From an uncultured Planctomycetia bacterium (GTDB taxonomy: Bacteria > Omnitrophota > Gorgyraeia > 1-14-0-20-64-10), in the NCBI GenBank assembly GCA_964373805.1, contig CAYJWF010000001.1:47181-111180 (forward strand): a DNA stretch of 64,000 nucleotides, in the 5' to 3' direction. A program made the position numbers and the translations under genes. The number at the start of each line of letters is the position of its first letter. Position 1 is the first letter of the stretch. Positions 8,616-59,007 of the stretch are shown one piece after another. The notes under the pieces are model-generated. The model saw nothing but the letters and a program-made list of their open reading frames with translations. It was not told the origin of the DNA and made no database searches.

Positions 8616-8843
8616 CTGAAGTTCCTGGAATGCGCCGTCGCCGGCCACGCCCAATTTCCAGTTACCGATGGGCAGGTTCGTCAAACGGCGCTCTACCCTG
8701 AGCGAACCATGGCTGGGTATAGGGGTCGTAAGATTGCAGAAAAGGCGATGGATGCCGAGCATGCTTTGCGAGTAGTTTACGAAGAGCGACCAGGAGAACT
8801 TGAGGTGATCACTTTTTATCCGGTACGGAGGAAACGCTTATGA
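8616..8843 (+). pseudogene. DUF4258-like toxin gene remnant (no convincing start codon)
   Basis: Frame ending TGA 8841-8843 encodes ...HALRVVYEERPGELEVITFYPVRRKRL typical of DUF4258 C-termini; only in-frame ATG (8709) would give 44 aa; stop overlaps ATG of the DUF2283 gene. Confidence 0.3.
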
Positions 8844-9052
8844 GAATCGGCTATGATCGTGAAAAAGACATTCTTTTAATCGAAGTTTCCAGGAAGCCAA
8901 TTGATCATGCAGAGGAACTCGGGCCACTCATCGTCCACTTCTCTCGGCAGGGCCATCCGGTACTTCTTGAAGTCTTGGATGCGAGCGACTTTTTGTCGGC
9001 GGCAACCAAGGTGACGGCGAGAGCAAAGACGGAACAGCTTGTTCCTCTCTGA
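8840..9052 (+). CDS. DUF2283-family small protein (usual partner of DUF4258)
   Basis: MRIGYDREKDILLIEV...LLEVLDAS pattern of DUF2283. Confidence 0.6.
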   Translation: MRIGYDREKDILLIEVSRKPIDHAEELGPLIVHFSRQGHPVLLEVLDASDFLSAATKVTARAKTEQLVPL

Positions 9053-9118
9053 GATTTCTACGGGAAAGCTGCGTAATTTCGCCATCCCTTTCTACTGAGC
9101 GTGGTAAACTACTGCTCG

Positions 9119-9550
9119 ATGTTCACCCTCGAGAAATCTCTCGAAAAACTGGCCAAGGCGCACCGGGAGATCGTGGCCCTTTATCTGTTTGGATCTCAGG
9201 CCACGGCGAAGAAGGGGCCTTTGAGTGATGTAGACGTCGCTCTGTTACTGGATGAGGGACGGGTCCAGCCTCGGAAACGATTCGATCTTCAGCTTGAGCT
9301 GCTCGGCGAGGCGATGCACCGTTGTAGGCGATCCGATGTCGACCTGGTGTTGTTGAACGAGGCAACCCCCTTGTTGGCCTACGAAGTGATCCGATCCGGT
9401 CGGCTCCTTTACGAGCGGGACCACGATGCCCGCGTTTCCTTTGAGGCCAAGGCACTTCAACATTACCTGGATCTAGAGCCGTTCTACCGGGTTGGTCGCC
9501 AGTACCTCAGGCACCAGCTTCTTCATGCAAAGGGGCATGGTCAATCCTGA
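9119..9550 (+). CDS. nucleotidyltransferase (MntA-like antitoxin)
   Basis: LFGSQATAKKGPLSDVDVALL minimal NTase motif; start moved to ATG 9119. Confidence 0.7.
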   Translation: MFTLEKSLEKLAKAHREIVALYLFGSQATAKKGPLSDVDVALLLDEGRVQPRKRFDLQLELLGEAMHRCRRSDVDLVLLNEATPLLAYEVIRSGRLLYERDHDARVSFEAKALQHYLDLEPFYRVGRQYLRHQLLHAKGHGQS

Positions 9551-9950
9551 GGTCGTTGCCAATCGGCTGAGTAGACTTAAGGAGTACCTGGGCTATCTGC
9601 GCAGCCTCCGGCGCTATCCTTACAAGCGGTTTTCCAGTGATCCCTTTATTCGAGGCAGTGCCGAGCGGTACCTTCATTTGGCCATTGAGTGCTGCCTGGA
9701 CATGGGCAACCACCTGATCGCGGACCGGGAGCTTCGCAAGGCCCAGGATTACCGAGAGGTATTTCTCATCCTGGGGGAAGTCAAGATCCTTCCTCCCGCG
9801 TTTGCCAAGCGGATCGCTCCCATGGGAAGCTTCAGGAACATCCTCGTTCACGATTATCTGCGAGTAGATCCGAAGAAGGTGTACGAGTTCCTGCACAAGC
9901 ACCTTGCCGATTTCACCCGGTTCGCCACGGCCATGGCGAAGTTCCTTTAG
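9537..9950 (+). CDS. HEPN-domain toxin (HepT/DUF86)
   Basis: FRNILVHDY (Rx4-6H HEPN motif); overlaps upstream NTase gene; start moved to ATG 9537. Confidence 0.7.
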   Translation: MVNPEVVANRLSRLKEYLGYLRSLRRYPYKRFSSDPFIRGSAERYLHLAIECCLDMGNHLIADRELRKAQDYREVFLILGEVKILPPAFAKRIAPMGSFRNILVHDYLRVDPKKVYEFLHKHLADFTRFATAMAKFL

Positions 9951-31836: not shown

Positions 31837-32394
31837 ATGAACAATTCAGAGCGGTTAAAAATACTCATGGAATCCGGAAGGTCGATATTTACGCCTCTGG
31901 ACATGCGCCTGTTGTGGCAGATGAATGCCTTGAGCGCCAAGATCAGCGCTGTGCGGATGGTGGAAAATGGGCTCATGATGAGGTTGGCCAATGGCTATTA
32001 TGCTCTGAATGATCGGTATAACCCGTATGAACTCGCCAACCGCCTGGTCTCGCCTTCCTACGTCTCGTTTCAGGCCTCTCTTTTTCACGCGGGGATCAAT
32101 TTTCAAGCGCGTCGGGAGATCGGATCCGTGGCGACTCGAGACCGCCAAAGGAAAGTGGGGGACGTCCTTTATACCTATGCCGCCATGAAGAAGGAGTTGT
32201 TTTTCGGCATGGAAGGTGTGGTGACTCGCGAAGGCGTGTCGATAGCGAGCCCTGAGCGCGCGATCCTGGACAGTTTTTACTTCGGGTATTTACCGGATAT
32301 CGACGATGCCGGAAAATTAAATAAAACCACTTTGGCGAAATTAAGCGCTGGGTACCCTAAGACCGTTCAAAAGAAGGTGAAAAATCTTTTATGA
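31837..32394 (+). CDS. AbiEi-family antitoxin (type IV TA transcriptional regulator)
   Basis: 185 aa, precedes and overlaps an AbiEii-like NTase gene; AbiEi-like N-terminal wHTH region. Confidence 0.5.
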   Translation: MNNSERLKILMESGRSIFTPLDMRLLWQMNALSAKISAVRMVENGLMMRLANGYYALNDRYNPYELANRLVSPSYVSFQASLFHAGINFQARREIGSVATRDRQRKVGDVLYTYAAMKKELFFGMEGVVTREGVSIASPERAILDSFYFGYLPDIDDAGKLNKTTLAKLSAGYPKTVQKKVKNLL

Positions 32395-33140
32395 GCCGCT
32401 TGTTTGAACGGGACACGCATAAAAGGTATCTTGCGCTTTTACTGACAGAGATGGCAAAGGCATTTCCTGAGAAGATCGCGTTTAAAGGCGGCACCTGCGC
32501 TCATTTTTTTTACAACCTTCCGCGATTCTCATTTGATCTGGATTTCGATATGGTCCGAGCCTTTAAGGCCGTCGATGTCGATCGATTCCGTGAGCTTGTG
32601 GAAAAACATGGACAAGCGAAGGATTTTTATGACAAGGCAAACACCTTATTTTGCCTTTTTGATTACGGGAAAGGCTATCCCAATATCAAAATCGAGCTGA
32701 ATAAGCGTGTGTGGACCCATAATGTTTATAAACCCGTCTGGTTGATGGGGGTGCCGATTTCTATTGCGGATGAAACCACGGTTCTTACGAATAAGCTGGT
32801 CGCGCTCACGGATCGAAAGACCGCGGTCGCGAGAGACTTATACGATATCTGGTACTTTTTAAAGGCGGGGTTTCCGGTCCACGATGCCCTTGTCCTCGAG
32901 CGCACCGGCAAGGATGCCCGAACCTATTTGGCATCCATCACCGCGTTTATCAAGAAAACCTATACGCCCCGTAACGTGTTGCACGGGCTGGGTGATGCGC
33001 TCGATGAAAAACAGAAGGCTTGGGCAAAGGATCATCTTGTTTCAGAAACCATACAGGAGATCAATCGGCGTGAGTCGGGGGGACGCTCCATTTTGGGACA
33101 CTCTACTGCGGAAAGAACCGCGTCCCCATCGCCACCCTAA
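32391..33140 (+). CDS. AbiEii/AbiGii-family nucleotidyltransferase toxin (DUF1814)
   Basis: FKGGTCAHFFYNLPRFSFDLDFD NTase core; C-terminal 20 codons read through direct repeat copy 2. Confidence 0.6.
   Translation: MSRLFERDTHKRYLALLLTEMAKAFPEKIAFKGGTCAHFFYNLPRFSFDLDFDMVRAFKAVDVDRFRELVEKHGQAKDFYDKANTLFCLFDYGKGYPNIKIELNKRVWTHNVYKPVWLMGVPISIADETTVLTNKLVALTDRKTAVARDLYDIWYFLKAGFPVHDALVLERTGKDARTYLASITAFIKKTYTPRNVLHGLGDALDEKQKAWAKDHLVSETIQEINRRESGGRSILGHSTAERTASPSPP
33075..33115. repeat. 40-bp direct repeat copy 2
   Basis: tcggggggacgctccattttgggacactctactgcggaaag. Confidence 0.7.
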
Positions 33141-38960: not shown

Positions 38961-39443
38961 GTGAAAAACCGAACTCCCCGATTCGTCGCTATTTTTCTTA
39001 TCTATGCCCTGCTTCTGCCAAGCCCTGCCTTTGCCATGAGGACACAGAGTGCCGATTCCAAAACAGTCGAATCCGGCCTGGAAGAAGCCCTTCGATCCGG
39101 AAAGCCGGATGCCCTTTTCAAATTCGGCACCGCCCGCCTCGCCGGCGCCCTGGGGATATCTCCGGCTGTTCCCTCTTCGAGAGCACCTGCCGTCGTTCCT
39201 CCGCGCTCCTCGACTGTCGCCGCCGGCCTGGAGGAGAGGGCTGTGGTGCAGGAGCGGGTGCGCCGGTTCTTAGCGGGGTTGGAGGAGCAAGCCCCGCAGG
39301 GGATGACCCCTATTCTGATTGGCCGGGCTCTACAAGGGCAGGATGCCCGGTTCCGAGCCTTAGCTGGGTTGGAGCAATTCAGCATTTATCTGGATCCTGG
39401 AGCCAGGGACAGAGACTCTCTCTTTTTACTCAATTTGTCATGA
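38961..39443 (+). CDS. small secreted protein with four [AS]GLE[EQ] motifs
   Basis: GTG start after good RBS; signal peptide (M)KNRTPRFVAIFLIYALLLPSPAFA|MRTQ; mature ~135 aa Ala/Arg/Leu-rich with SGLEE, AAGLEE, LAGLEE, LAGLEQ. Confidence 0.55.
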   Translation: MKNRTPRFVAIFLIYALLLPSPAFAMRTQSADSKTVESGLEEALRSGKPDALFKFGTARLAGALGISPAVPSSRAPAVVPPRSSTVAAGLEERAVVQERVRRFLAGLEEQAPQGMTPILIGRALQGQDARFRALAGLEQFSIYLDPGARDRDSLFLLNLS

Positions 39444-39673
39444 AAGGCTACCGGCATTTCCTTTTTGCCGGTTTGGAGGAGGCACAGGCTCTGCGTCCCT
39501 TAGCGGGTCTAGCCGGTATGACCCTTGACGTGGTTCCTCCGCAGCGATTCGAGGAGCTCATGCCATCCCTTTTGGCCAAGGCCACTGGATTGGAACAGGA
39601 GGCCCTTCGGGCCTGGGAAGGCTTCGGCCAGGTCATGGCCGGTTTGGAAGAGCTCGCCGCCCTCGGCGTGTAA
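39440..39673 (+). CDS. small protein with three xGLE[EQ] motifs, translationally coupled (ATGA) to upstream gene
   Basis: 77 aa MKGYRHFLFAGLEEAQ...ATGLEQEA...MAGLEELAALGV. Confidence 0.5.
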   Translation: MKGYRHFLFAGLEEAQALRPLAGLAGMTLDVVPPQRFEELMPSLLAKATGLEQEALRAWEGFGQVMAGLEELAALGV

Positions 39674-39736
39674 GCCTGCTCGAAGAGGTACCGGGACTGT
39701 ACAGTTTAGGTCAAAGGCGTTGACCCACCTCGTATC

Positions 39737-40084
39737 TTGCGTTATTCTAGCTGCACGGTGACTCCTGTGGGACTTCATAGAGAGCTTAATCGTGTAGTCG
39801 ATCTGATTAAGAAGCGGTACCATCCGAAGGAGATTATTCTCTTTGGATCTCTGGCAAGAGGACGCAGTCGTTCCGGCAGCGATATTGATCTCGTTGTGAT
39901 CAAATCTACTCGAAAATCCTTTGTAGATCGCTTGCGGGAAGTGGCCTTGCTCCACCACGCCCGTGTCGGGGTCGACATTCTAGTCTACACGCCTAAAGAG
40001 TGGGAACGATTGCAGCACGAGAAGCGTTGGTTTATCCTGGACGAGGTCTTAAAGAAGGGGCGAATCCTCTATCGTGCCGCCTGA
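39737..40084 (+). CDS. nucleotidyltransferase (MNT antitoxin-like)
   Basis: LFGSLARGRSRSGSDIDLVV minimal NTase motif. Confidence 0.7.
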   Translation: MRYSSCTVTPVGLHRELNRVVDLIKKRYHPKEIILFGSLARGRSRSGSDIDLVVIKSTRKSFVDRLREVALLHHARVGVDILVYTPKEWERLQHEKRWFILDEVLKKGRILYRAA

Positions 40085-40499
40085 TACAGGAGCCGTTGGC
40101 CACTGGTTACGATTTGCGGCAGATGATTTAAAAGCTGCTCGGTCGGTCCTGCGAGAAGGTCTTTACCACGTGACCTGTTTCCACGCCCAGCAAGCGGTTG
40201 AAAAAGGTCTAAAGGCGTATCTGGTGGCGAGAGGGAAAGCGTTGCCGCGTGAGCATCACCTGATTAACCTTTTACAGCACTGTGTCCGTTCAAAACTAAG
40301 CGGTAGTAGAGGAGTAGAGCATGCTTGTAAGATCTTGGATCAGTACTATCTACCTACTCGGTATCCAGATGCCCTAGTGGGAAGCCTCCCTCAAGGATTA
40401 CCCACTCGTTCCCACGCAACAGAGGCCATCGACCTGGCCGAGACGGCTTTGCGAGCCGTTCGGCGATCCATCAGAAGAAAATCTGTTTTCCCCGGGTAA
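40074..40499 (+). CDS. HEPN-domain protein
   Basis: FHAQQAVEKGLKAYL and YYLPTRYPD HEPN features; overlaps NTase gene. Confidence 0.7.
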   Translation: MPPDTGAVGHWLRFAADDLKAARSVLREGLYHVTCFHAQQAVEKGLKAYLVARGKALPREHHLINLLQHCVRSKLSGSRGVEHACKILDQYYLPTRYPDALVGSLPQGLPTRSHATEAIDLAETALRAVRRSIRRKSVFPG

Positions 40500-40544
40500 G
40501 CTCCTATGGTTCCCATGGGGCCGGCGTGCTATGCTTAAAGTGAG

Positions 40545-40866
40545 ATGGATGGCCGGATAAGAATTTTGCTGGCGGAGTTGAAAAAAAGAACTCCAGGCGA
40601 TTTACGGAGGCCGTTTGATAAGGGTCCACCTGTACGGTTCCTATGCCAGAGGCGAGGCGGATCCGGAGTCGGATGTCGATGTGTTGGTCGTGTTGGACGA
40701 ATACGACCGGTATTCTGTAGAGATAAGGCGGACCAGTCAACGGATCTCCTCCCTATGCCTCAAGTACAGTGTCAGCGTTAGTCGTGTGTTCATTTCTGAA
40801 GAGAAATGGTTAAGGGACGATTCGCCCTTTCTCCGGAACACGCGATCTGAAGCCATTGCCGCATGA
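40545..40866 (+). pseudogene. nucleotidyltransferase gene disrupted by +1 frameshift in an A7 tract (40581-40587)
   Basis: ATG 40545 frame gives MDGRIRILLAELKK then, with A6, would continue ELQAIYGGRLIRVHLYGSYARGEADPESDVDVLVV (the 40615..40866 ORF). Confidence 0.6.
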
Positions 40867-40991
40867 AGCCAGAGACTGAGAAACTGCTGGAGAAGGCGGC
40901 ACCTGGCAGGCCAACAGTAAGATTCCCTGTTCCGCAAGATGTCCGGCATTTCCTTTTTGCCGGTCTGGAACAGCTCGGCTCCAGCGCGTAG
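40863..40991 (+). CDS. 42-aa peptide ending RHFLFAGLEQLGSSA
   Basis: ATG overlaps NTase stop (ATGA); shares 30-nt identity (ccggcatttcctttttgccggt...tgga) with start of gene 39440..39673; below ORF-track size cutoff. Confidence 0.3.
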   Translation: MKPETEKLLEKAAPGRPTVRFPVPQDVRHFLFAGLEQLGSSA

Positions 40992-41136
40992 GCCCATCCC
41001 AACTTCCTCTGCGGGTGCATCCCAAGTTTGTCGGTAAAGGGTTAAAATAAGAGGAACTCCCCGAAGAAAGGAGTTCCTCTACCGTCGGGTTGATTCTCCC
41101 TTTTCGCTGTGGTAAAGTCGTTTTAAGGAGATACCC

Positions 41137-41358
41137 ATGCGGCTCAGTGAGGCAAAAAGGAAATATCGAGGCCAGTGGTTGGCGTTCTCTATCCGACGGG
41201 AGAAAGACGCAGATCCGGAAGGGACTCTGGTGGCCCACGCGAAGAGTCGCCATGAGCTGCATCGAAGGCTTCAAAAGCGACACATCTGGCGCGTGTATCT
41301 AACCTTTGCAGGTCCTCCTGTAAGGCCAGGCTACGCCGTCGTTTTTGTTCTGACTTAA
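41137..41358 (+). CDS. DUF5678-like small protein
   Basis: 73 aa; recollection of DUF5678 pattern, low certainty. Confidence 0.35.
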   Translation: MRLSEAKRKYRGQWLAFSIRREKDADPEGTLVAHAKSRHELHRRLQKRHIWRVYLTFAGPPVRPGYAVVFVLT

Positions 41359-41751
41359 GTGGAGCTTCCCCTCGTATTTGGAAAACCAATCCTCGTTCCG
41401 AGAGTCCGCGTCACTGGGCCAAAGGCCATCCGCGAGGTGGACCTATTCCTCGATACGGGGGCCCTTTATACCCTCCTCGCCGTTGATGTGTTACGTGAAG
41501 TTGGATGTGACCCGCTGGCTGCTCGTCGTCGCATTCCTATGGTGACTGCCAAGGGCGTCCTTACGGTTCCTGTTGTTCGAGTCCCATCCGTAGAGGTTGC
41601 CGGCTTTCGACTGAGGAACGTTTCTGTGCTTTGTCACGATATCCCTGAACTGGCCGAAGCGGCCGGATTACTTGGGCTTAACGTGTTGGAGTCGTTCATC
41701 ACTACGTTGGATTATGAGAAAAGGAAACTTCTCTTCCAGTTGTGGCGCTAA
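41359..41751 (+). CDS. retropepsin-like (clan AA) aspartic protease
   Basis: FLDTGALYT catalytic DTG motif in ~130-aa protein, GTG start abutting upstream gene. Confidence 0.6.
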   Translation: MELPLVFGKPILVPRVRVTGPKAIREVDLFLDTGALYTLLAVDVLREVGCDPLAARRRIPMVTAKGVLTVPVVRVPSVEVAGFRLRNVSVLCHDIPELAEAAGLLGLNVLESFITTLDYEKRKLLFQLWR

Positions 41752-49637: not shown

Positions 49638-52600
49638 ATGCGAAATCGAATCGTAGCTGGTTTAACCGTTCTAGCATTCCTGCTTGGCCAAACGCCCGCC
49701 TACCCCTTTGACCACGGGGAAGGAGGGAAGCGTCCCGGCTTTGGGTCAGCCGTTCTTCGCCCTCTCAGCCCGGATCAGTCGGATTGGATGAGGCAGGCCA
49801 TTGAAGCCGGTTTGGAGGAGCCCGCCGGAGAAGAAACGCGCTCGTTTGAGGAGCTGCTTTTAGAGATTCTGGACGAGGAGAAAGCCAGAAACCGCTCCAG
49901 CCGGGATTCAAAGAGACTGTTGAATCGGTTTGTGGAGTTTTTTGAAGAGGATGCAAGGAGCGGTTCTTCGGTGCCCGAGACTGTGACTGTGGAGGCAAGG
50001 GCCAGGAGGATCTTATTAAGGCAGACCCCCGGAGTAACCGTGGCTAAATTACGCCAAGAGACAGACAACCCCAGTAAGAGGTTTTCCCTTCGGAACCTTC
50101 CGGGAAGGAAAGGGGAAATGGCCTTGCCTAACGTATGGGTCTTGCGGGAACAGGTAGCAAGGACTGCTCGGATTCTCGAGGGGTTAAAGATTACCCAAGA
50201 CAAGGGGCCTATCTCCGAGCCTCCTACTTTAGAATCAACCCTGACACCTACAGAGTACTTAGCTAGGTTAAGAACGCACCTGTTCTATTCCAACCAACAG
50301 CAACAGTACCTTTCGGTCCCGACGTACGGGGTCGTTGGTTTTTTTGATCCGGAGGAATACCGCCGCGCGGGAGAAGAAACACCCTATGCGGTTTTACCTG
50401 TCTTGGCCGTCCGACAAATCGGCCTTCAGCCTTCCCTCCGAGCCTTTGACTTGGCCATCGGAATGGTGGACAACGGGCTCAAGAAGGTCGAAATGCGAGA
50501 ATCGGGAACCGACCATCCGCCTTTTCTTCTTCTCCACTTTGCAAGGCCACTGATCGATGCCGAAAGCGGCCGGAGAGGTCTGGACCGGCTGGCCGTTTTT
50601 CTGCTCAAGACACCCTGGCCTGAGCTTCCCAAGTTGGCGGGGGATAGACCGCTTGAGACTCTTCCCGATGAGGAATTTCTTAACGCGGTTCTGCAATCTT
50701 TACTGGCGGAGAGAGAACATCTCGAGCAGGACGCGGGACGGCTTCGGCAGATTGCCTTTGAGGAAGGGGAACCGGTTTCTATTCAGATAGAGAAACGGGA
50801 ATCCCTTCTCCGGTTAGCCCTAGCGGAGAGGCTTGTTCCTCGGTCAGGCTATCAACCTTACACGGCAGCCAGCGCCGTGAGACTCGCTCGGTGGATGGGC
50901 CGAACCGTGAGGGAGAGGCAGTTCATCCGACAGCATATGGAGTTGTTGATAGAGGAGGCGAACCTGATCGAGGCCTCCGGAGCTGTGACGTGGAGTCGTT
51001 CGTCTAAAACGGAGAAAGCCATAGAGGCACTTTGGGAGAGGTTTCACCGGTGGAAGAGGCGCACAGGGATTTTGCAAGAGCTTGGGACCTTGGATCTGGC
51101 TGAGATCCCGGGGGCTGCAGAAAGGGTTGAGCAGCTCGACAAGAAGCTTCTGATTCCTAAAAAGGACGTTTCGATGGAAGCTTGGCGGCTGTATCTGCCG
51201 TTGCTTCGGCTGGTTCTTGCCAGAGATTCCCTGGGCCAATGGGTGCTCAACGACCAGGAGGCTACCTACCTGCTCAATCGCATGGAAAAATTCCGTCAGG
51301 AGTTGCTGAATGGGGTTCTCGTGATGGAGAGAACGTTAGCCTCGATGACCCCGGGAGAGGCTCAGGCGATCCTATCTTTTGAACTTAACCAGGCACTTCT
51401 TGACCCGCTGATTCAGAAACCGCTGAAAACCCCTCGGGTGACGCTGCAAAAGGCCCTGCTGAAGGAATGTGAGCGGTTGTTCCAGGTTTCTTTGGGCAGG
51501 TCCCCCACGGCTTTGGCCCTGTTAAGAGACGAGCGAGAGGCTTTATTCAAAGAGGTTCGCCAGGTTCAGGGCAGATTCTGGGCCAGCCTTCTGGGGAACT
51601 TGTCGGAAGCAGAGAAGGCTCTGACGGAGTTCGAGCGACTGGATGAGCGTTTGAGGGCGTTCGGTCCGCGGCTTGCAGGCAGGGACGTAGGGGTGGCTTC
51701 GGAGGGCGGCGGCGTGCCACCCCTACCACTGTCTCAAGAAGGAATTTTGTCTTTCCTAGACAGGATGAAGGAAAAGATAACAACACCAGCGAATTTGGGA
51801 CGACTGGAAAATCCTTCTGGGCTTGATCTGTACCGATCCCTTTTGGATATCGCCCGGCTCGTCCCAGAAGGCCGTGTGAGAGAGGCTTTCGAAAGGAGCC
51901 GGTTGGATGCAGCGATCTCGCTGGAGGAATGGGAGCGGCCCTTTTTGGGTTCGTTCCGGCGGAGACTGGCTGAGCGGATTGCCCAAGAGGTCCTGGAGGA
52001 TGCCCAGACCGCTCCGCCAACACAGCAGAAGGCAGCCGAACAGCGGATCTTAGAGGCAGCGGAACTGGTAGGGGAGTTTCCACAGATCGCAGGGAAACTT
52101 TTAACCACCGATCGGGCCAAGGCGAAGGCTTTACTCTCGGCTTTTACCACGGAATTGTCGGATAAGGGAAACCGGCTCCTTCGAGAATTTGTAGTGGCTA
52201 AGGCCAGCCGGGAACCTTTCCCAGAAGCCAAGGAGGATAAGCTCAGAAAACGTTACCGCAGTCTCCATTCCGGTAGAGGAGTCCCAACGCTGTACGAACG
52301 GGTAGCCTTGGATCTGGATCCCTCCCTTCTTCCCAACCGACCCATTCCTTCCGGATCGGTTTCGCCAACGATTGTAAGGAAGGAAGATTCCACCGCCGGC
52401 CTGGAGGAGAAAAAGGGCGGTTCCATTTTGGATAGGGAAGGGGAGAAGCAGATCCGCGAGGCCACTCAGGCATTAGACGGAGCCCTCCACCCCATTGGGA
52501 ACCCGGTCGTTTTTTTCTCCAAGGTCGAAGCTGCGGTCGTTTTTTTCTCCAAGGTCGAAGCTGCGCTGAAGGCCATTGGAGAAGTGCCTTCTTCTCGATG

Positions 52601-55600
52601 GCCTAACCTTTTTCAAGAGGAGTTTAAACGACTTAGGGATCAATTGAGAATTGCCGAGAGGCATCCTGACCAGAAGGAGTTTGCCCAGAGGATGCGGCAC
52701 TCCCTCTCTGATTTTCGGGACCGGTGGAACAGGTCTCTTGCCCAAGAGGGAATTTCGTCTGGCCGGGAACAAAAGCCCGCCAGTGAGAAAAAGGTCGATG
52801 GGGGAATTATCCCTCAACAGAGGCCTTTGCCTAAGCGACCATCGAAACGGCAGCGGATCATTGAGGAGCTGTCGCGGTTGCCGGATGAGAGAAAACGTCT
52901 CAAATCCCTTCGCCTGGCGGCTGGATTTCGGTCTCCCCATGAGTTAGAAAAAGCAGCCGGGGTGGCCTGGGCGACGGTATCCCGAATGGAATCCGGCAAG
53001 CGAGGAATCGGTCCCCACGTCAGGCGAAAGGTGAAAGGGCTATTGGAAAAGGAGTTGGGTCTACGACTGACGTTTCACTTCCGTTTGATAGAGTTTCCTT
53101 TAGAGCGCAGTGTCAATGTCTTGCCGACGACCGAGGATCGGTTTACTTTCCTCAAGGACGAACTTCTGGGATGGACCAAGCAAGAACTCGCTCAGCGAGC
53201 GAACGCCATCAGGAGTCTCCCTTCTCCTGCTTTGGACACGCGCTACCGCCATGCGCCGATGGATCAAACCCATTTCTGGATTCGGCGTTCCATCCGGGAT
53301 GCTCTGGAACGTGGTTTATCGGAGGAGTTTCAACGCCCTGTACGGCTTGACGGACGTCTTCGGATTGTTACGAATTCGGTTGCCGGGCATCTCAGAGCTT
53401 TGCCCAATGCCGAGGCGCGTCTGACCTGGTTGTTGGAGGAGGAACTTGTCTGGTATCGGAGCGAATTTCTTAGAGAAGCGGGGTTCAAAGAGCATGGGAA
53501 GGTACAGCCCCCTCCGAATCAGCAATCCCAGGCGTTGCAGAGGTGGGAGAAACTCCGTCGCGCGCTCGAGCGAGGTTTGGCCAAGCGGGGAGAGCAGATT
53601 TCTCTTGATGCCAACTTGCTCCCTCAGACCGGCCTGGAGGAACGGAACCAGAGCAGACCCAGTGGGTTGGACCTAGGGCAACAGGTGAGGCGGCTGGTGG
53701 ATACGGCGAAGGGGTTAGCCTCCTCCGGACAGGAAGGGGATGCCCTAGGGGTGCTGGATGAGGCGCTTCGGTTAGATCCTGAGAATGCCCATACCTTGGT
53801 GGAGAAGGCGAGCCTGTTGGACCGACGGCGGAGCTTAAGAAAAGCCCTTCAGGCCATTAATCGAGCCCTCTTGATCGATCGCCGTCGCATCCGTGAACTT
53901 GGGATCGGCCCGATTCGTGGTCGAGATAAATCTGGACGTATTTATCTGGTCATCCGAACGATTCGGGCAAGGATCCTGTTTCACTTAAGTCAACAAGAAA
54001 GGGATCCGACGCAGCGTCTTCATTTCCATCGAGGAGCAGAGAATTCGGTTAAGCAGGCCCTCCAGTGGGATCCGACGGATCCTTGGGCGGTGAAACAAGC
54101 GGTTCAGATCATTCATAGGCGTCCAGTGGAGCACGAGAGCTATGAACAAAGGTGGGAGGATGCCCAGGAAGTGGCGGCTCCCCTCTTGGCCAGAGTGGGC
54201 AGAGGGGAGTTTCGAGAGGAAGATGACCGACTTTCTATTGCACAGATACTTCATGATCTCAAGTGGACCGAGAGAATGGTTACGTTTCTTGAGGAAACGG
54301 TGTTACCCCAGAACCCCGGGTGGCCTCCAGCGTTAAAACTCTTGAGTGAGGGAAAGCGCGATTTAAATAAACCCACCGCTGGTTTGGAGGAGCGGTGGGT
54401 GCGTGTGATTGCCGACGATGCCACGGGTGGCGCGGAGTTGGTGTTGGAGCTCGCCAAGAGAGGTAAGAGGGCCCTTCTCGTCTCTCTGGACACCCCGGAT
54501 AAGCTTCTCAAGCGGTATCGGGTTATTGTGTACAACACCCTGGCTCGGAATCTGTCTCCCCGAGAGACGCGCCTTCGCACAGGCCAGGTCAAGGGTTCCA
54601 TTCTTCAACCGGGAGAGTGGGCCTACCTTAAGATCGATTCGACCCTCCGTGGGAATTGGCTGGATGGGATCATCGCCTGGACCAAGAGGCTTCAACCGGA
54701 GGTGATCTTGGTGGCGCCGGCCATTGTTTCACAGGGAAGAGCGACCCGACAGGGAGTCCATGAACTCCTCGAGGGAGGGAGTTGGATCCCCCTGCATCAA
54801 ACCATGTACCGTGACCTGATTGATCCGGGACTGGTTCAATCAGAATCCAATCTTCAGGAATATCTGCGGCAGCGGGTCTCGGCGAAGGTGGAGCTCCTCA
54901 ACCGAGAGGTCATTGAGCAAGGGTCTGAAGAGGTTCGCAAACGGCTCGCCGGTGTGGAAAAAGGGACTTACCTCGTGGCGGATGCCACCGAGAGCCGACA
55001 CCTTGAATCCATAGCTGAAGCTGTCCATGAGCTTCCCCGACCGATCCTTTGTTCCGGTTCTGCCGGCCTCTTCGGCACCCTGGTCAAGGAAGAGAAATCG
55101 GTTGAATTAGTGCCCTGGGTGGAACAGCTCATCAAAAAGACTTCACGGGGCAGAGGGAAGGTGTTGGTACTGGCCGGCTCTCGTCACCCAAGATCAGACG
55201 AACAGGTCAGAAGAGCTCTCGAGAGTCTTCCGGGTCGCGTGGCCCTGCTGAAGATTTCCACGGAAGGCTTCCAAAGAAGGCAGACTCGAGCTGCTGGGAT
55301 TCGGCGTGCCCAGCGGAAGATCCATCGAGCTTGGCAGCAGGCCCAAGGTGTCATCCTCCAGTTCGAGCCGCCGCGTCTTAAGAAACGGAGCCACCAAACA
55401 CAGCGTGCCATGGCGGAATTTTACCGTGAACTGTTCGGCACAAGGGAGATTCAAGGTCAGCTCGGCCTTCTCGTTGTTTTTGGGGGAGACACCTTGGGTA
55501 CAGTTCTAACGGGCTTCCAAGCCGGGTTTACCGCTACAGGAGAAGTGGCTCCTCAGATCTCTTACGGGCAGCTCATCACCATGGATCGACCGCCTTTGCC

Positions 55601-58145
55601 TCTCATCAGCAAAGCCGGCGGATTTGGGGATCGGGACTTGCTCGTCGATATCCTGACCCAAGCGCGTGCCATCGCCCCTGCCCGCCTGGGGATTACCATG
55701 GGGGATCCGGCGGGGAGCGGGCCGGAGCTGCTCCTTCGGGCTCTCGTCCAAGAACCCACCTTCCTGGAAAAGGCGGAGCTTCTCGTCATTGGCGATGCCA
55801 AGGTCCTCAGGCAAGCGCGGGATTACTTTAAAATTCGAGGGGCTCCTCAAATTCGGGCGATTGCTCGGGTGGAAGAGGCCCGATTTGTTCCAGGGGTTCT
55901 CAATGTGATGGATCTTGAGAATGTCAATTCGGAGATCCTCAAGAAAAGTTTTGGCCCGGTCGGTGTGGATTTGGACGAGGAAACCCGCCGTCATTTTGGC
56001 CAAGCAGCCCTGCAGTCTATCGATGGGGGAATGGAGTTGGCTTCGGCAGGGAAGGTGGATGGCCTGGTCACCCTGCCGGTTACCAAGGAGGATATCGATC
56101 TGGTTTCTCCAGGTTTCCGAGGCCATACCGACCATCTGGCCAAGGGGTTAGGCACCCTCACCGGCTCTGGGGTGGTCACCATCGCCTTGATTTACGGAAA
56201 GCTCCGGGTCCTTCACGTGACGACGCACCTGTCGCTTAAAAAGGTGGTGGAGGAGTTCCAGAAGCCGGAGATTACCGATAAGATTCTAGAGCTCATTCGG
56301 ATAGCAGACCAGATGGGACGTCGCTACTTCGGTTTTAGCCTGGCGAAACGACCTCGCATTGGGGTATTGGGACTCAACCCTCATGCCGGAGAAGGGGGAC
56401 TGCTGGGCACGGAGGATCAAGAACGGATTCAGCCGGCTATTGATCAGGCTTTGGAAGAAGGATTGAACGTTGCGCCACACCCGGTCCCTGCCGACACGGC
56501 CTTTACCAGAGAGGTCCGCAATGGCTACGATTTCATCATCGCCATGTCCCACGATCAGGGCCACGGACCCTTTAAGGCGCTGGCCGGGTTTGAGGGGGTG
56601 AACGTAACCGGGAATCTACCGATTGTTCGTACCAGCCCAGACCACGGAACCGCTCGGCAGGAGGCCTGGAACAGAGATCGGGATGTCTCCCTTACCACGA
56701 GAGGGCTCATCGCCTCCATCCGCTCCGCCATCAAGATGGTCCACGCCGCCCCCCGCTCTGCCTTGATGTCGAAGGAGACTACCGCCGGCCTGGAGGAGAC
56801 CGCCAAGGAAAAAGCGAAAAGGGTCAAGGGGTTGCTAGAGGTGGCTTCCCACTTGGCTTCTGCAGAGAGATTTGAGGATGCCTTGGAGAAAGCTCGGGAG
56901 GCTTTTCGGTTGGATTCCGGCAACACGGCGGTCGTAGTGCAGTTAGCAAGTCACTTGGATCGGATCGGATATCGGGATCAGGATTCTGAGAAAGTCCATA
57001 ATGCGCTAAGCGCTATTGAGGTGGTTCTTGGGAAACTCCCGAAGAATCCGGGCGCGCTAACGGTCAAAGCCAGAATTCTGTTTCATCTCAGTAAACTGGA
57101 GAAGGACGAGAAGAGCCCAGAACGCCACATCGAGGCAGAGAGAATCCTTTGGCGCGTTCTCAGGGAAAATTTCCCAGACCACCGGGCAACGCTTACGCTC
57201 GTCCACGTTATCCATGGTCGTTCTCACGAAGACGCCCGGTTTCAAGGTAAGCATGTCGATGCCCTGCGGGTTGCGTTGCGAATTTTGGAAAGAGGTGAGC
57301 CCCGTCGAATGAAATACCGAGAATGGTTTGCCCAGCTCTTATTCGACTTAGGAGACCTGGGATGGGCAGACCATGTTGCCAGTAAAATGGTTCAACAGGG
57401 TCGTAAGGGACCCCCTTCTTTCCGCCGCCTTGTTGAGAATATCCCAGCCAGGCGCAAGGAGTTCGGTGATATGAAACTCATGTTGCGTGCGGCCTTGAAG
57501 GGGCTCAGCGATTGGGACAGAACGGTTTTCTACCGGGCGCGGAATCGCAGTTTGGGATCCCTCGCTGGCCCTTCGGTTCGTGCTCCGGACTCGCTCGGAG
57601 CCGGTTTGGAGGAGTTGCCGGAGCCGGTGGCGGAGGCGTTGAGGGCGGAGCCGGAGGCGGCGGTGACGAGGGCGGTGGTACTGGATGCGGATGGGATTCC
57701 GCAGGTGGTGGTGACACTTCGGGTACCGGTTGATGTTCCGTCGGCTCCCAAGATTTTGGTGAAGCCGGTGGTGTTGGCGCAGTTGGGGTTGTTGCCAGAT
57801 CAGGTCGTGGGACGATTCCAATCCTGGGGATGGTCGGTGACGTTCATGCCGGCCGATTTAACGGGGAAACGGCTTCTGGGGGAAGTCGACGCTGGCCTTG
57901 AAGAATGGGAGGGCCCCCTTTTCGTGATCGTCGATGAAAAGTGGGAGGAAACGGTTAAGCAACTACCGGCCTACTCCCGTGTGACGGCGGTTGCCTTGGA
58001 TCGATCGTTGGCGCATGCCCTGGATCCTGACCTGCTGGTTTTGTCTCTCTTGCAGGCTTTCAAGAACCTTCCCGGCCGGTTCCTCAGGCCGGAATATTTC
58101 CTTCAGACCGGCTTGGAAGAGATCGTCGTCGCTACCCAGTTGTAG
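49638..58145 (+). CDS. giant (2835-aa) signal-peptide helical/TPR protein with embedded DUF1537 kinase-PdxA dehydrogenase module
   Basis: Single stop-free ORF; N-terminal hydrophobic signal/anchor; Leu/Glu/Arg-rich helical and TPR-like sequence; residues ~1588-2375 carry IADDATGG, VVFGGDTLG (four-carbon acid sugar kinase) and ITMGDPAGSGPEL, NPHAGEGG, MSHDQGHGP (PdxA family); eight xGLEE motifs. Confidence 0.7.
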   Translation: MRNRIVAGLTVLAFLLGQTPAYPFDHGEGGKRPGFGSAVLRPLSPDQSDWMRQAIEAGLEEPAGEETRSFEELLLEILDEEKARNRSSRDSKRLLNRFVEFFEEDARSGSSVPETVTVEARARRILLRQTPGVTVAKLRQETDNPSKRFSLRNLPGRKGEMALPNVWVLREQVARTARILEGLKITQDKGPISEPPTLESTLTPTEYLARLRTHLFYSNQQQQYLSVPTYGVVGFFDPEEYRRAGEETPYAVLPVLAVRQIGLQPSLRAFDLAIGMVDNGLKKVEMRESGTDHPPFLLLHFARPLIDAESGRRGLDRLAVFLLKTPWPELPKLAGDRPLETLPDEEFLNAVLQSLLAEREHLEQDAGRLRQIAFEEGEPVSIQIEKRESLLRLALAERLVPRSGYQPYTAASAVRLARWMGRTVRERQFIRQHMELLIEEANLIEASGAVTWSRSSKTEKAIEALWERFHRWKRRTGILQELGTLDLAEIPGAAERVEQLDKKLLIPKKDVSMEAWRLYLPLLRLVLARDSLGQWVLNDQEATYLLNRMEKFRQELLNGVLVMERTLASMTPGEAQAILSFELNQALLDPLIQKPLKTPRVTLQKALLKECERLFQVSLGRSPTALALLRDEREALFKEVRQVQGRFWASLLGNLSEAEKALTEFERLDERLRAFGPRLAGRDVGVASEGGGVPPLPLSQEGILSFLDRMKEKITTPANLGRLENPSGLDLYRSLLDIARLVPEGRVREAFERSRLDAAISLEEWERPFLGSFRRRLAERIAQEVLEDAQTAPPTQQKAAEQRILEAAELVGEFPQIAGKLLTTDRAKAKALLSAFTTELSDKGNRLLREFVVAKASREPFPEAKEDKLRKRYRSLHSGRGVPTLYERVALDLDPSLLPNRPIPSGSVSPTIVRKEDSTAGLEEKKGGSILDREGEKQIREATQALDGALHPIGNPVVFFSKVEAAVVFFSKVEAALKAIGEVPSSRWPNLFQEEFKRLRDQLRIAERHPDQKEFAQRMRHSLSDFRDRWNRSLAQEGISSGREQKPASEKKVDGGIIPQQRPLPKRPSKRQRIIEELSRLPDERKRLKSLRLAAGFRSPHELEKAAGVAWATVSRMESGKRGIGPHVRRKVKGLLEKELGLRLTFHFRLIEFPLERSVNVLPTTEDRFTFLKDELLGWTKQELAQRANAIRSLPSPALDTRYRHAPMDQTHFWIRRSIRDALERGLSEEFQRPVRLDGRLRIVTNSVAGHLRALPNAEARLTWLLEEELVWYRSEFLREAGFKEHGKVQPPPNQQSQALQRWEKLRRALERGLAKRGEQISLDANLLPQTGLEERNQSRPSGLDLGQQVRRLVDTAKGLASSGQEGDALGVLDEALRLDPENAHTLVEKASLLDRRRSLRKALQAINRALLIDRRRIRELGIGPIRGRDKSGRIYLVIRTIRARILFHLSQQERDPTQRLHFHRGAENSVKQALQWDPTDPWAVKQAVQIIHRRPVEHESYEQRWEDAQEVAAPLLARVGRGEFREEDDRLSIAQILHDLKWTERMVTFLEETVLPQNPGWPPALKLLSEGKRDLNKPTAGLEERWVRVIADDATGGAELVLELAKRGKRALLVSLDTPDKLLKRYRVIVYNTLARNLSPRETRLRTGQVKGSILQPGEWAYLKIDSTLRGNWLDGIIAWTKRLQPEVILVAPAIVSQGRATRQGVHELLEGGSWIPLHQTMYRDLIDPGLVQSESNLQEYLRQRVSAKVELLNREVIEQGSEEVRKRLAGVEKGTYLVADATESRHLESIAEAVHELPRPILCSGSAGLFGTLVKEEKSVELVPWVEQLIKKTSRGRGKVLVLAGSRHPRSDEQVRRALESLPGRVALLKISTEGFQRRQTRAAGIRRAQRKIHRAWQQAQGVILQFEPPRLKKRSHQTQRAMAEFYRELFGTREIQGQLGLLVVFGGDTLGTVLTGFQAGFTATGEVAPQISYGQLITMDRPPLPLISKAGGFGDRDLLVDILTQARAIAPARLGITMGDPAGSGPELLLRALVQEPTFLEKAELLVIGDAKVLRQARDYFKIRGAPQIRAIARVEEARFVPGVLNVMDLENVNSEILKKSFGPVGVDLDEETRRHFGQAALQSIDGGMELASAGKVDGLVTLPVTKEDIDLVSPGFRGHTDHLAKGLGTLTGSGVVTIALIYGKLRVLHVTTHLSLKKVVEEFQKPEITDKILELIRIADQMGRRYFGFSLAKRPRIGVLGLNPHAGEGGLLGTEDQERIQPAIDQALEEGLNVAPHPVPADTAFTREVRNGYDFIIAMSHDQGHGPFKALAGFEGVNVTGNLPIVRTSPDHGTARQEAWNRDRDVSLTTRGLIASIRSAIKMVHAAPRSALMSKETTAGLEETAKEKAKRVKGLLEVASHLASAERFEDALEKAREAFRLDSGNTAVVVQLASHLDRIGYRDQDSEKVHNALSAIEVVLGKLPKNPGALTVKARILFHLSKLEKDEKSPERHIEAERILWRVLRENFPDHRATLTLVHVIHGRSHEDARFQGKHVDALRVALRILERGEPRRMKYREWFAQLLFDLGDLGWADHVASKMVQQGRKGPPSFRRLVENIPARRKEFGDMKLMLRAALKGLSDWDRTVFYRARNRSLGSLAGPSVRAPDSLGAGLEELPEPVAEALRAEPEAAVTRAVVLDADGIPQVVVTLRVPVDVPSAPKILVKPVVLAQLGLLPDQVVGRFQSWGWSVTFMPADLTGKRLLGEVDAGLEEWEGPLFVIVDEKWEETVKQLPAYSRVTAVALDRSLAHALDPDLLVLSLLQAFKNLPGRFLRPEYFLQTGLEEIVVATQL
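52505..52564 (+). repeat. perfect 30-bp in-frame tandem duplication (2 x ggtcgtttttttctccaaggtcgaagctgc) inside giant ORF
   Basis: Encodes VVFFSKVEAA twice; each unit contains a T7 homopolymer (52510-52516, 52540-52546). Confidence 0.9.
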
Positions 58146-58256: not shown

Positions 58257-58613
58257 ATGCATGGGGTAATTGTTATGGAAATTTCATGGGCGGTTACTCG
58301 AGAAAAGATTGAGCAGGCTGTTAAGAGGATCATCCGTTTTGAGCAGCCAAGGAGGGTTGTTTTGTTTGGTTCCGCGGCGCATGGCAATGCCACACTTCAC
58401 AGCGACGCGGATATTCTCGTGGTAACCAAGAAGGAAGTGGACAGCTCTCGTAAGGAGAGTGTTCGGATCCGTCGGCAACTACGTGGTATTTCCATGCCAA
58501 TGGACATCCTGGTGATTTCAGAAAATCGCCTAAAGGCATTGGCCGACCATCCCGGACTCATCTATCGGGAGGCCCTGCGGCATGGAAAAGTCCTCTATGA
58601 GGCCGCAGCCTGA
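58257..58613 (+). CDS. nucleotidyltransferase (MNT antitoxin-like)
   Basis: LFGSAAHGNATLHSDADILVV. Confidence 0.7.
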   Translation: MHGVIVMEISWAVTREKIEQAVKRIIRFEQPRRVVLFGSAAHGNATLHSDADILVVTKKEVDSSRKESVRIRRQLRGISMPMDILVISENRLKALADHPGLIYREALRHGKVLYEAAA

Positions 58614-59007
58614 AAAGGGGATTCCGGGATCGCCAAGAGAATGGCTGATCCACGCTGAAAGTGATCTAAAACTGGCCTGCTTGGCCAGAGATTCCGAAGG
58701 TGTTTTACCGGAACAGAGCTGTTTTCACTCCCAGCAGACGGCTGAGAAAGCCTTGAAAGCTGTTCTCCTTTTCAATAAGATCGATTTCCCCCTTACCCAT
58801 GATATCGAAGAGCTACTTGAACTCGGTAAACAAGGAGGTTTAACGCTGCCCTCCCAGATAGAGGAGGTAGGTAGCCTTACTCCCGATGCCGTGGAGGCCC
58901 GCTACCCTGGTCATTTTGAAGAAATTACATCTCCCGACGTTGATGAGGCAATCCGCGTAGCTGAAGTAGTTCTTCAGTGGGCTAGGGAGATCGTTGGAGA
59001 GTCGTAA
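58582..59007 (+). CDS. HEPN-domain protein
   Basis: FHSQQTAEKALKAVL, EARYPGHF HEPN features; overlaps NTase gene. Confidence 0.7.
   Translation: MEKSSMRPQPEKGIPGSPREWLIHAESDLKLACLARDSEGVLPEQSCFHSQQTAEKALKAVLLFNKIDFPLTHDIEELLELGKQGGLTLPSQIEEVGSLTPDAVEARYPGHFEEITSPDVDEAIRVAEVVLQWAREIVGES

Follow-up and report, generated by a model that had tools for sequence, protein, structure and literature searches.

In the HEPN-MNT toxin-antitoxin systems that have been characterised, the toxin is the HEPN protein, an RNase, which its partner, a minimal nucleotidyltransferase (MNT), neutralises by adenylylation (PMC7641770, PMC11586414). The genes of the type VII HepT/MntA modules are arranged with MNT first, followed by HEPN, whose start codon overlaps the MNT stop codon (PMC7641770, PMC11586414, PMC2701414). 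The locus described here shares this order. Its traits in common with the type VII modules are a minimal nucleotidyltransferase with a G-S...D-x-D motif (once its frame is restored), a PF05168 partner in the relatives and a setting of tandem toxin-antitoxin cassettes.

Here, we report an analysis of this locus within a 64-kb window, by which we mean the whole stretch of 64,000 nucleotides under study. The initial annotation of the window had read the locus as a nucleotidyltransferase gene broken by a tract of seven A (A7), either a pseudogene or a slippage-prone (phase-variable) gene, with a 42-residue peptide in place of its expected HEPN partner. Our results indicate that the region 40545-40994 is very probably a dead MNT-HEPN cassette, produced by ordinary decay, and neither a switch nor the home of a new toxin partner. 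The features on which the argument draws are collected in Table 1.

Table 1. Features of the decayed cassette and of related loci in the window.
Feature	Coordinates	Strand	Remarks
AGLEE-family gene A, broken into two ORFs ('160-aa' and '77-aa')	38961..39673	+	two extra T's
Motif (c) in gene A, upstream copy of the 27-nt repeat	39451..39477	+	repeat comparison
MNT1, intact antitoxin-type nucleotidyltransferase of the neighbouring cassette	39767..40084	+	PF01909, PF18765
HEPN1, intact	40074..40499	+	GTG 40074 overlaps MNT1 stop; PF05168 E 4e-28, profile 3-116/117
Extended -10-like element TGCTATGCT	40527..40535	+	9 nt upstream of ATG 40545; candidate promoter
MNT2' pseudogene, antitoxin-type minimal nucleotidyltransferase	40545..40866	+	interrupted by a +1 frameshift
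A7 tract, site of the one-base insertion	40581..40587	+	ancestral AAA AAA GAA = K K E
83-aa ORF, TTG start, GGAGG 4 nt upstream	40615..40866	+	in-frame 3' three-quarters of MNT2'
HEPN2' stub, codons 1-13 of the cognate HEPN toxin gene	40863..40901	+	matches L002 and L003
42-aa ORF, chimera of stub, spacer and relic	40863..40991	+	ends in DVRHFLFAGLEQLGSSA and a stop
Spacer of ~40 nt, PGRPTVRFPVPQDV	40902..40942	+	no match found
Relic of AGLEE-family C-terminal module	40943..40994	+	motif (c) joined directly to motif (e)
MntA/HepT pair, bona fide type VII	9101-9950		NCBIfam scores of 92.8 and 123.4 bits (cut-offs 60)
2835-aa ORF with AGLEE motifs	49638-58145		HTH, TPR, four-carbon acid sugar kinase (SBD_N/NBD_C) and PdxA fused
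Intact MNT-HEPN pair (118 and 141 aa)	58257-59007		112 nt past the stop of the 2835-aa AGLEE ORF

The frameshifted nucleotidyltransferase gene

The frame opened by the ATG at 40545 encodes MDGRIRILLAELKK ahead of the A7 run. Removal of one A from the tract yields a 106-aa protein, MDGRIRILLAELKKELQAIYGGRLIRVHLYGSYARGEADPESDVDVLVV..., which scores 48.6 bits on the Pfam family NTP_transf_2 (PF01909), above the gathering score of 21, and has a further match to Polbeta; the proposal that A7 breaks the gene and that A6 restores a complete MNT is thus upheld. The original frame had been said to run out after the tract. It is indeed broken there, but it does not end at once: it goes on out of register and gives an ORF of 78 aa, which stops at 40781. 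In the restored protein the catalytic G-S-x(9-10)-D-x-D motif reads YGSYARGEADPESDVDV, and G31, S32, D43 and D45 are invariant in the MNT protein alignment. A search of 5.8 billion proteins gave 485 relatives, the best intact ones being P0001 (112 aa) and P0003 (106 aa), with 77-79% identity across the full restored length, the 14 residues preceding the A tract included. Since the score of the restored protein against the NCBIfam model MntA_antitoxin (NF047752) is 31.6 bits, below the cut-off of 60, MNT2' is best classed from its sequence as an MNT in the broad sense, which belongs to a subfamily other than that of the characterised MntA and is not an equivalog.

Upstream of the MNT start, an alignment shows GTGCTATGCTTAAA to be common to the window and the relative L003. 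The element TGCTATGCT is the probable promoter of the cassette, from which the mRNA would be nearly leaderless. A transcript from this old promoter would yield, at most, the 78-aa product and perhaps a little of an 83-aa nucleotidyltransferase. The 83-aa ORF lacks the N-terminal helix of MNT2' and by itself still carries the PF01909 domain; because GGAGG precedes its TTG and the GS...DxD residues are kept, some residual activity is possible. On three identical contigs this ORF has been called as a gene on one and omitted on two.

Gene callers also report an 86-aa ORF on the minus strand at 40737-40997 (NCBI and Logan records). It is probably spurious, because it runs antisense to conserved MNT coding sequence.

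Nature of the A7 frameshift

Homopolymers are classic sites of sequencing error, and an intact MNT gene with a true A6 tract is the alternative that the initial annotation itself had named. We consider it extremely improbable. A7 is present in all three run-level Logan assemblies (ERR4904391, ERR4904390 and ERR3478686), whose contigs are otherwise also 100% identical to the window across 4.1-5.2 kb; these assemblies may derive from one clonal or enriched population, and the tract length was read at the consensus level. The tract is the sole A run of at least seven within the 64-kb window. Other homopolymers of at least this length, namely a T8 (32504), a G8 (47938) and three T7 runs, lie in frame within long intact ORFs, so the assembly is without systematic homopolymer error, and no further frameshift was found at homopolymers of at least seven in the window. 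Moreover, the 106-aa product of an A6 allele has no record among ~15 billion proteins, and the partner toxin gene has been destroyed independently of the tract. The 78-aa out-of-frame product was likewise not found in the same collection.

A different reading accepts the tract length and gives it a function: DNA slippage, RNA polymerase slippage or a +1 ribosomal shift would toggle the nucleotidyltransferase on and off. Runs of A can slip during replication or transcription, and on A7 the tRNA-Lys could re-pair perfectly one base forward (AAA to AAA). However, the tract is absent from every aligned relative. At its site the two closest relatives, L002 and L003, have the codons CTT AGG GTA GAA and CTG AAG CGA GGC; the window is exactly one base longer than both in the DNA alignment, and the site falls within a non-conserved stretch of the MNT. 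Seven bases are also short for a contingency tract, a single length (OFF) was observed in the three assemblies and among the ~15 billion proteins, and a product in the ON state would find no toxin partner. Recoding would need a +1 shift and not the common -1 shift, at a site that is not conserved and offers no rare codon in the 0 frame: AGA, the codon next after the tract, accounts for 48 of 421 Arg codons (11%), and the rare-codon case for +1 frameshifting was rejected for this reason. A phase-variable or recoded gene is thus highly unlikely. No stimulatory structure was seen in the region downstream of the tract, as the RNA fold of 40860-41180 was not more stable than those of shuffled sequences (z -0.22).

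At the consensus level we read A7 as a fixed frameshift mutation, and neither as an assembly error nor as a tract that serves phase variation or recoding. With one extra A relative to L002 and L003, the same tract in three assemblies and the toxin gene cut short, the pseudogene put forward by the initial annotation is supported, and the slippage-prone tract offered beside it is not.

The HEPN2' stub

In both L002 and L003 the MNT gene is followed by a gene for a 127-aa PF05168 HEPN protein, which starts in an ATGA overlap identical to that of the window; the two proteins open with MKPETEKLLQKASRSIRAAE... and MKSATEKLLKKAFRSIRAAE.... The 42-codon ORF was located as described earlier, at 40863-40991, where it starts inside the ATGA that closes the MNT frame. 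Its first residues, MKPETEKLLEKAA, correspond to MKPETEKLLQKAS in L002 and MKSATEKLLKKAF in L003, with 11 of the 13 identical to the L002 partner. Nucleotide similarity to both relatives ends at ~40901, from which point the stub codons run in frame into unrelated DNA, and a tblastn search for HEPN2 detected no other remnant anywhere in the window. Given the 13-codon match and the lack of a remnant elsewhere, the toxin gene is truncated after codon 13. The earlier view that the peptide had replaced the HEPN partner was therefore right in that the HEPN protein is missing and wrong in that codons 1-13 persist. The broad HEPN-MNT arrangement, MNT then HEPN with overlapping stop and start, is present here by a remnant only; of an intact adjacent toxin gene, 13 codons are left.

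Gene A and the AGLEE family

The 27-nt repeat discussed below links the 3' part of the 42-codon ORF to gene A, which lies upstream. The closest family member to gene A, P0131 (contig L087, 65% identical), holds both the '160-aa' and the '77-aa' parts in one frame and reads ...FRALAGLEEFGIYLDPGARERGSLFTQFVVGGYRHFLFAGLEEEGKALRPL...GFGQFMAGLEQLGSRA before its stop. Because of this single frame, the ORFs 38961-39443 and 39440-39673 are one broken gene, and the latter, treated as a whole gene in the initial annotation, is its 3' fragment, split off by a frameshift of its own. The window has CTCTTTTTACT where L087 has CTCTTTACT, that is, T5 at 39423-39427 against T3 in the orthologue. Reading through the split would require a -1 shift at CTC TTT TTA, and the T5 is identical in all three run assemblies.

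A HMMER search with the 160-aa ORF against 1.84 billion representatives gave 32 relatives, from which we defined the AGLEE C-terminal module. This module, found in many members, is ~150 aa long, contains 4-5 GLEE motifs and ends in [AT]GLE[EQA]L[GAS]S[RG]A and a stop. The family is further marked by a signal-like leader ending in LPxPAFALR and by [SAT]GLEE motifs located at domain junctions, and its members P0130-P0161 have varied enzyme bodies (Peptidase_S8, PfkB, GNAT, HEAT, and a DUF1537 kinase with PdxA). The 2835-aa ORF of the window shows the same layout, with GLEE motifs just ahead of domain starts; its 3033-aa homologue P0130, 71% identical, keeps these motifs and adds more. A word-indexed homology search with the 77-aa ORF retrieved the query itself only, alignment of the C-terminal module against metagenome contigs gave only two loci, and exact look-ups of P0129 and P0144 found neither on record. 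There is no Pfam or NCBIfam model of the family, and a literature search for the motif or the family found nothing relevant. AGLEE thus appears to be a real protein family that is undescribed. It is more noteworthy than the decay of the cassette, but it is a separate finding that merits a study of its own.

Composition of the 42-codon ORF

The repeat shared by gene A and the 42-codon ORF, previously given as a 30-nt near-identical stretch, is real and beyond chance, with a length of 27 nt. The copies at 39451-39477 and 40943-40969 are identical at 26 of 27 positions, with sharp edges; 100 shuffles gave zero matches, and the local alignment score of 49 compares with a shuffle maximum of 26. For comparison, gene A and L087 agree at 23 of 27 positions of this motif. 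The repeat encodes motif (c), RHFLFAGLE, which in the ORF is joined to the terminal motif (e), GLEQLGSSA and a stop (40959-40994). The segment 40959-40994 matches the 3' end of the L087 orthologue gene at 32 of 36 nt (E 2e-7), and AGLEQLGSSA followed by a stop (40959-40991) agrees with the terminal pattern [AT]GLE[EQAS]L[GAS]S[RGS]A. The family C-termini compared with this tail include ...FMAGLEQLGSRA in P0131 and AGLEELASRA in P0133, each before the stop. The tail RHFLFAGLEQLGSSA can thus be recognised by sequence similarity as a scrap of an AGLEE-family gene end. It is far from a complete ~150-aa module with 4-5 GLEE motifs: the relic measures 52 nt, and the ~170 nt that normally separate motifs (c) and (e) are absent from it. 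Its junction sits within the shared GCCGGTYTGGA, and the fusion of (c) to (e) bears what we take to be the signature of a deletion between these short direct repeats.

Between stub and relic lies the spacer of ~40 nt. It does not significantly resemble the sequence that precedes motif (c) in gene A or L087, and longer repeats of it occur nowhere else in the window. A 13-mer across the breakpoint, which recurs at 32485, was dismissed as a chance match.

Could the ORF nevertheless encode a genuine small protein, either as a new partner of the nucleotidyltransferase or as one of a family of 'AGLEE peptides'? The ATGA would allow translational coupling, and the product has the RHFLFAGLE motif and a family-like C-terminus. 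Nevertheless, it is a three-part chimera, in which residues 1-13 are a HEPN N-terminus and just 52 nt of a ~150-aa module are kept, and the upstream frame to which it would be coupled is itself broken. The exact 42-aa sequence is absent from the ~15-billion-protein collection, and it has no Pfam or NCBIfam match. Nor is the arrangement found in any relative in the data searched; a comparison of orthologous loci, which the initial annotation had suggested as a check, shows that the short ORF is not conserved and that L002 and L003 have the HEPN gene at this overlap. The chance of a functional small protein is therefore very slim, and we infer that the ORF is an accidental by-product without a function of its own.

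Two further observations concern the DNA to the right of the relic. The core of the 27-nt repeat recurs at 41151-41164 (minus strand) as a perfect inverted copy of 14 nt, GGCAAAAAGGAAAT. This copy lies inside the start of the ORF 41137-41358, at a distance of 189 nt downstream from the relic; it may be due to chance, since the HFLFA codons give AKRK when read as their reverse complement, or could be a trace of rearrangement. A strong 13-bp hairpin at 41050-41080 has its T run on the minus strand, although there is no gene on that strand to the right of it; the hairpin could be left over from rearranged DNA or be a plus-strand terminator without a U tract.

Neighbouring cassettes and the link with AGLEE genes

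The dead cassette sits in tandem behind the intact MNT1-HEPN1 cassette (39767-40499), which is of a different subfamily and has a promoter-like site ahead of it at 39720-39748. With a G+C content of ~51-54%, the cassette block lies slightly below its flanks (57-60%), a difference compatible with an origin as acquired DNA. Scans for Rfam families and for tRNAs gave no hit in the locus. Among the matches listed in a scan of genome contigs with NuoJ, the best was 48% identical, and none came from a close relative. In public gene calls HEPN1 begins at 40170 and is 109 aa long, too short for the Pfam HEPN match, which requires the GTG start at 40074 (141 aa). At 41137-41751 a 73-aa ORF without a family match and a 130-aa retropepsin-like aspartyl protease (PF13975/PF13650) show translational coupling, and the pair looks like another small two-gene cassette. 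Elsewhere in the window, a 70-aa ORF at 8840-9052 precedes the MntA/HepT pair, and a 249-aa ORF (32391-33140, with the T8 at 32504-32511 in frame) follows a 185-aa ORF (31837-32394) and looks like a putative AbiEii-type nucleotidyltransferase toxin.

Each of the two AGLEE loci of the window has an MNT-HEPN pair (39767-40499 or 58257-59007) within ~60-110 nt downstream of it. The initial annotation had proposed a physical link between AGLEE peptides and nucleotidyltransferase/HEPN modules, and the adjacency is real in this genome. It does not extend to the two examined relatives, in which RsmD/CoaD (L088) and GatC (L089), and not an MNT-HEPN module, lie downstream of the AGLEE-family gene. One explanation of the adjacency would be that the GLEE-coding repeats are recombination substrates, by which toxin-antitoxin cassettes behind AGLEE genes, at their 3' ends, would be captured, displaced or deleted time and again. 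The close succession of AGLEE gene and cassette at both loci and the motif-to-motif junction of the relic fit this idea. Set against it are the housekeeping genes downstream in L088 and L089, the absence of a recombinase gene nearby and the presence of four MNT-HEPN modules in the 64-kb window (9101-9950, 39767-40499, the dead 40545-40994 and 58257-59007), which makes some adjacency expected. In addition, synonymous and third-codon positions of the GLEE motif vary freely, so the motif is conserved as a peptide and not as a DNA site. A specific recombinational link between AGLEE genes and MNT-HEPN modules is possible but unlikely, and repeated cassette exchange at these repeats is improbable to the same degree. 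The same holds for the proposal that the relic at 40943-40994 is the displaced original gene end: its tail is nearer to the orthologue gene end (32/36) than the present tail of gene A is (~28/36 plus a 3-nt indel), but 32/36 and 28/36 do not differ significantly. If the idea were true, the relic and the MNT-HEPN pairs behind both AGLEE loci would be traces of one process.

A proposed path of decay

Ordinary decay of an MNT-HEPN cassette, the reading that we favour, could have proceeded as follows. A rearrangement would first have deleted HEPN2' beyond its stub and, in the same event, the greater part of a second AGLEE-family copy. By analogy with the characterised systems, loss of the toxin would make the antitoxin dispensable, and MNT2' would then have been free to gain a homopolymer slip; that this MNT acted by AMPylation is extrapolated from the same systems. 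A deletion between short direct repeats would have fused an internal GLEE motif to the terminal one. The HEPN stub now runs in frame through 40 nt into the 52-nt AGLEE scrap, giving the 42-aa chimera. Neither the pre-deletion allele nor the A6 allele was found in the data searched, and the order of these events is inferred.

The main value of this analysis lies in annotation: an antitoxin gene with a frameshift, the remnant of a toxin and an ORF of chimeric origin should not be misread as a switch or as a new peptide partner, and the neighbouring 'genes' 38961-39443 and 39440-39673 can be treated as one broken gene. The locus is also a clean, small example of toxin-antitoxin decay, in which the toxin is lost and the antitoxin degenerates, and it illustrates a deletion that runs between two short coding repeats.

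Comparison with known systems

The resemblance to known frameshifted genes is limited. Like homopolymer contingency loci, MNT2' has a frameshift in a mononucleotide run close to the 5' end of the gene; unlike theirs, its tract is short (7), not conserved and of a single length in the data searched, and its functional context has been lost. Programmed frameshift sites (the -1 site of dnaX, A AAA AAG, and the +1 site of prfB) share with A7 an A-rich slippery run, whereas A7 would need a +1 shift and has neither a hungry codon nor conservation. Compared with the type VII HepT/MntA modules, the MNT here is frameshifted, the HEPN gene is down to 13 codons and the MntA score of 31.6 lies below 60. 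The closest parallel is found in decayed toxin-antitoxin remnants and deletion-junction ORFs, in which the toxin has likewise been deleted, the antitoxin is degenerating and a spurious small ORF arises by read-through. Nothing essential differs from these, although the junction here includes a recognisable scrap of a lineage-specific repeat-motif family; the locus belongs, in decayed form, to a toxin-antitoxin class that is very common, and has an accidental ORF besides.
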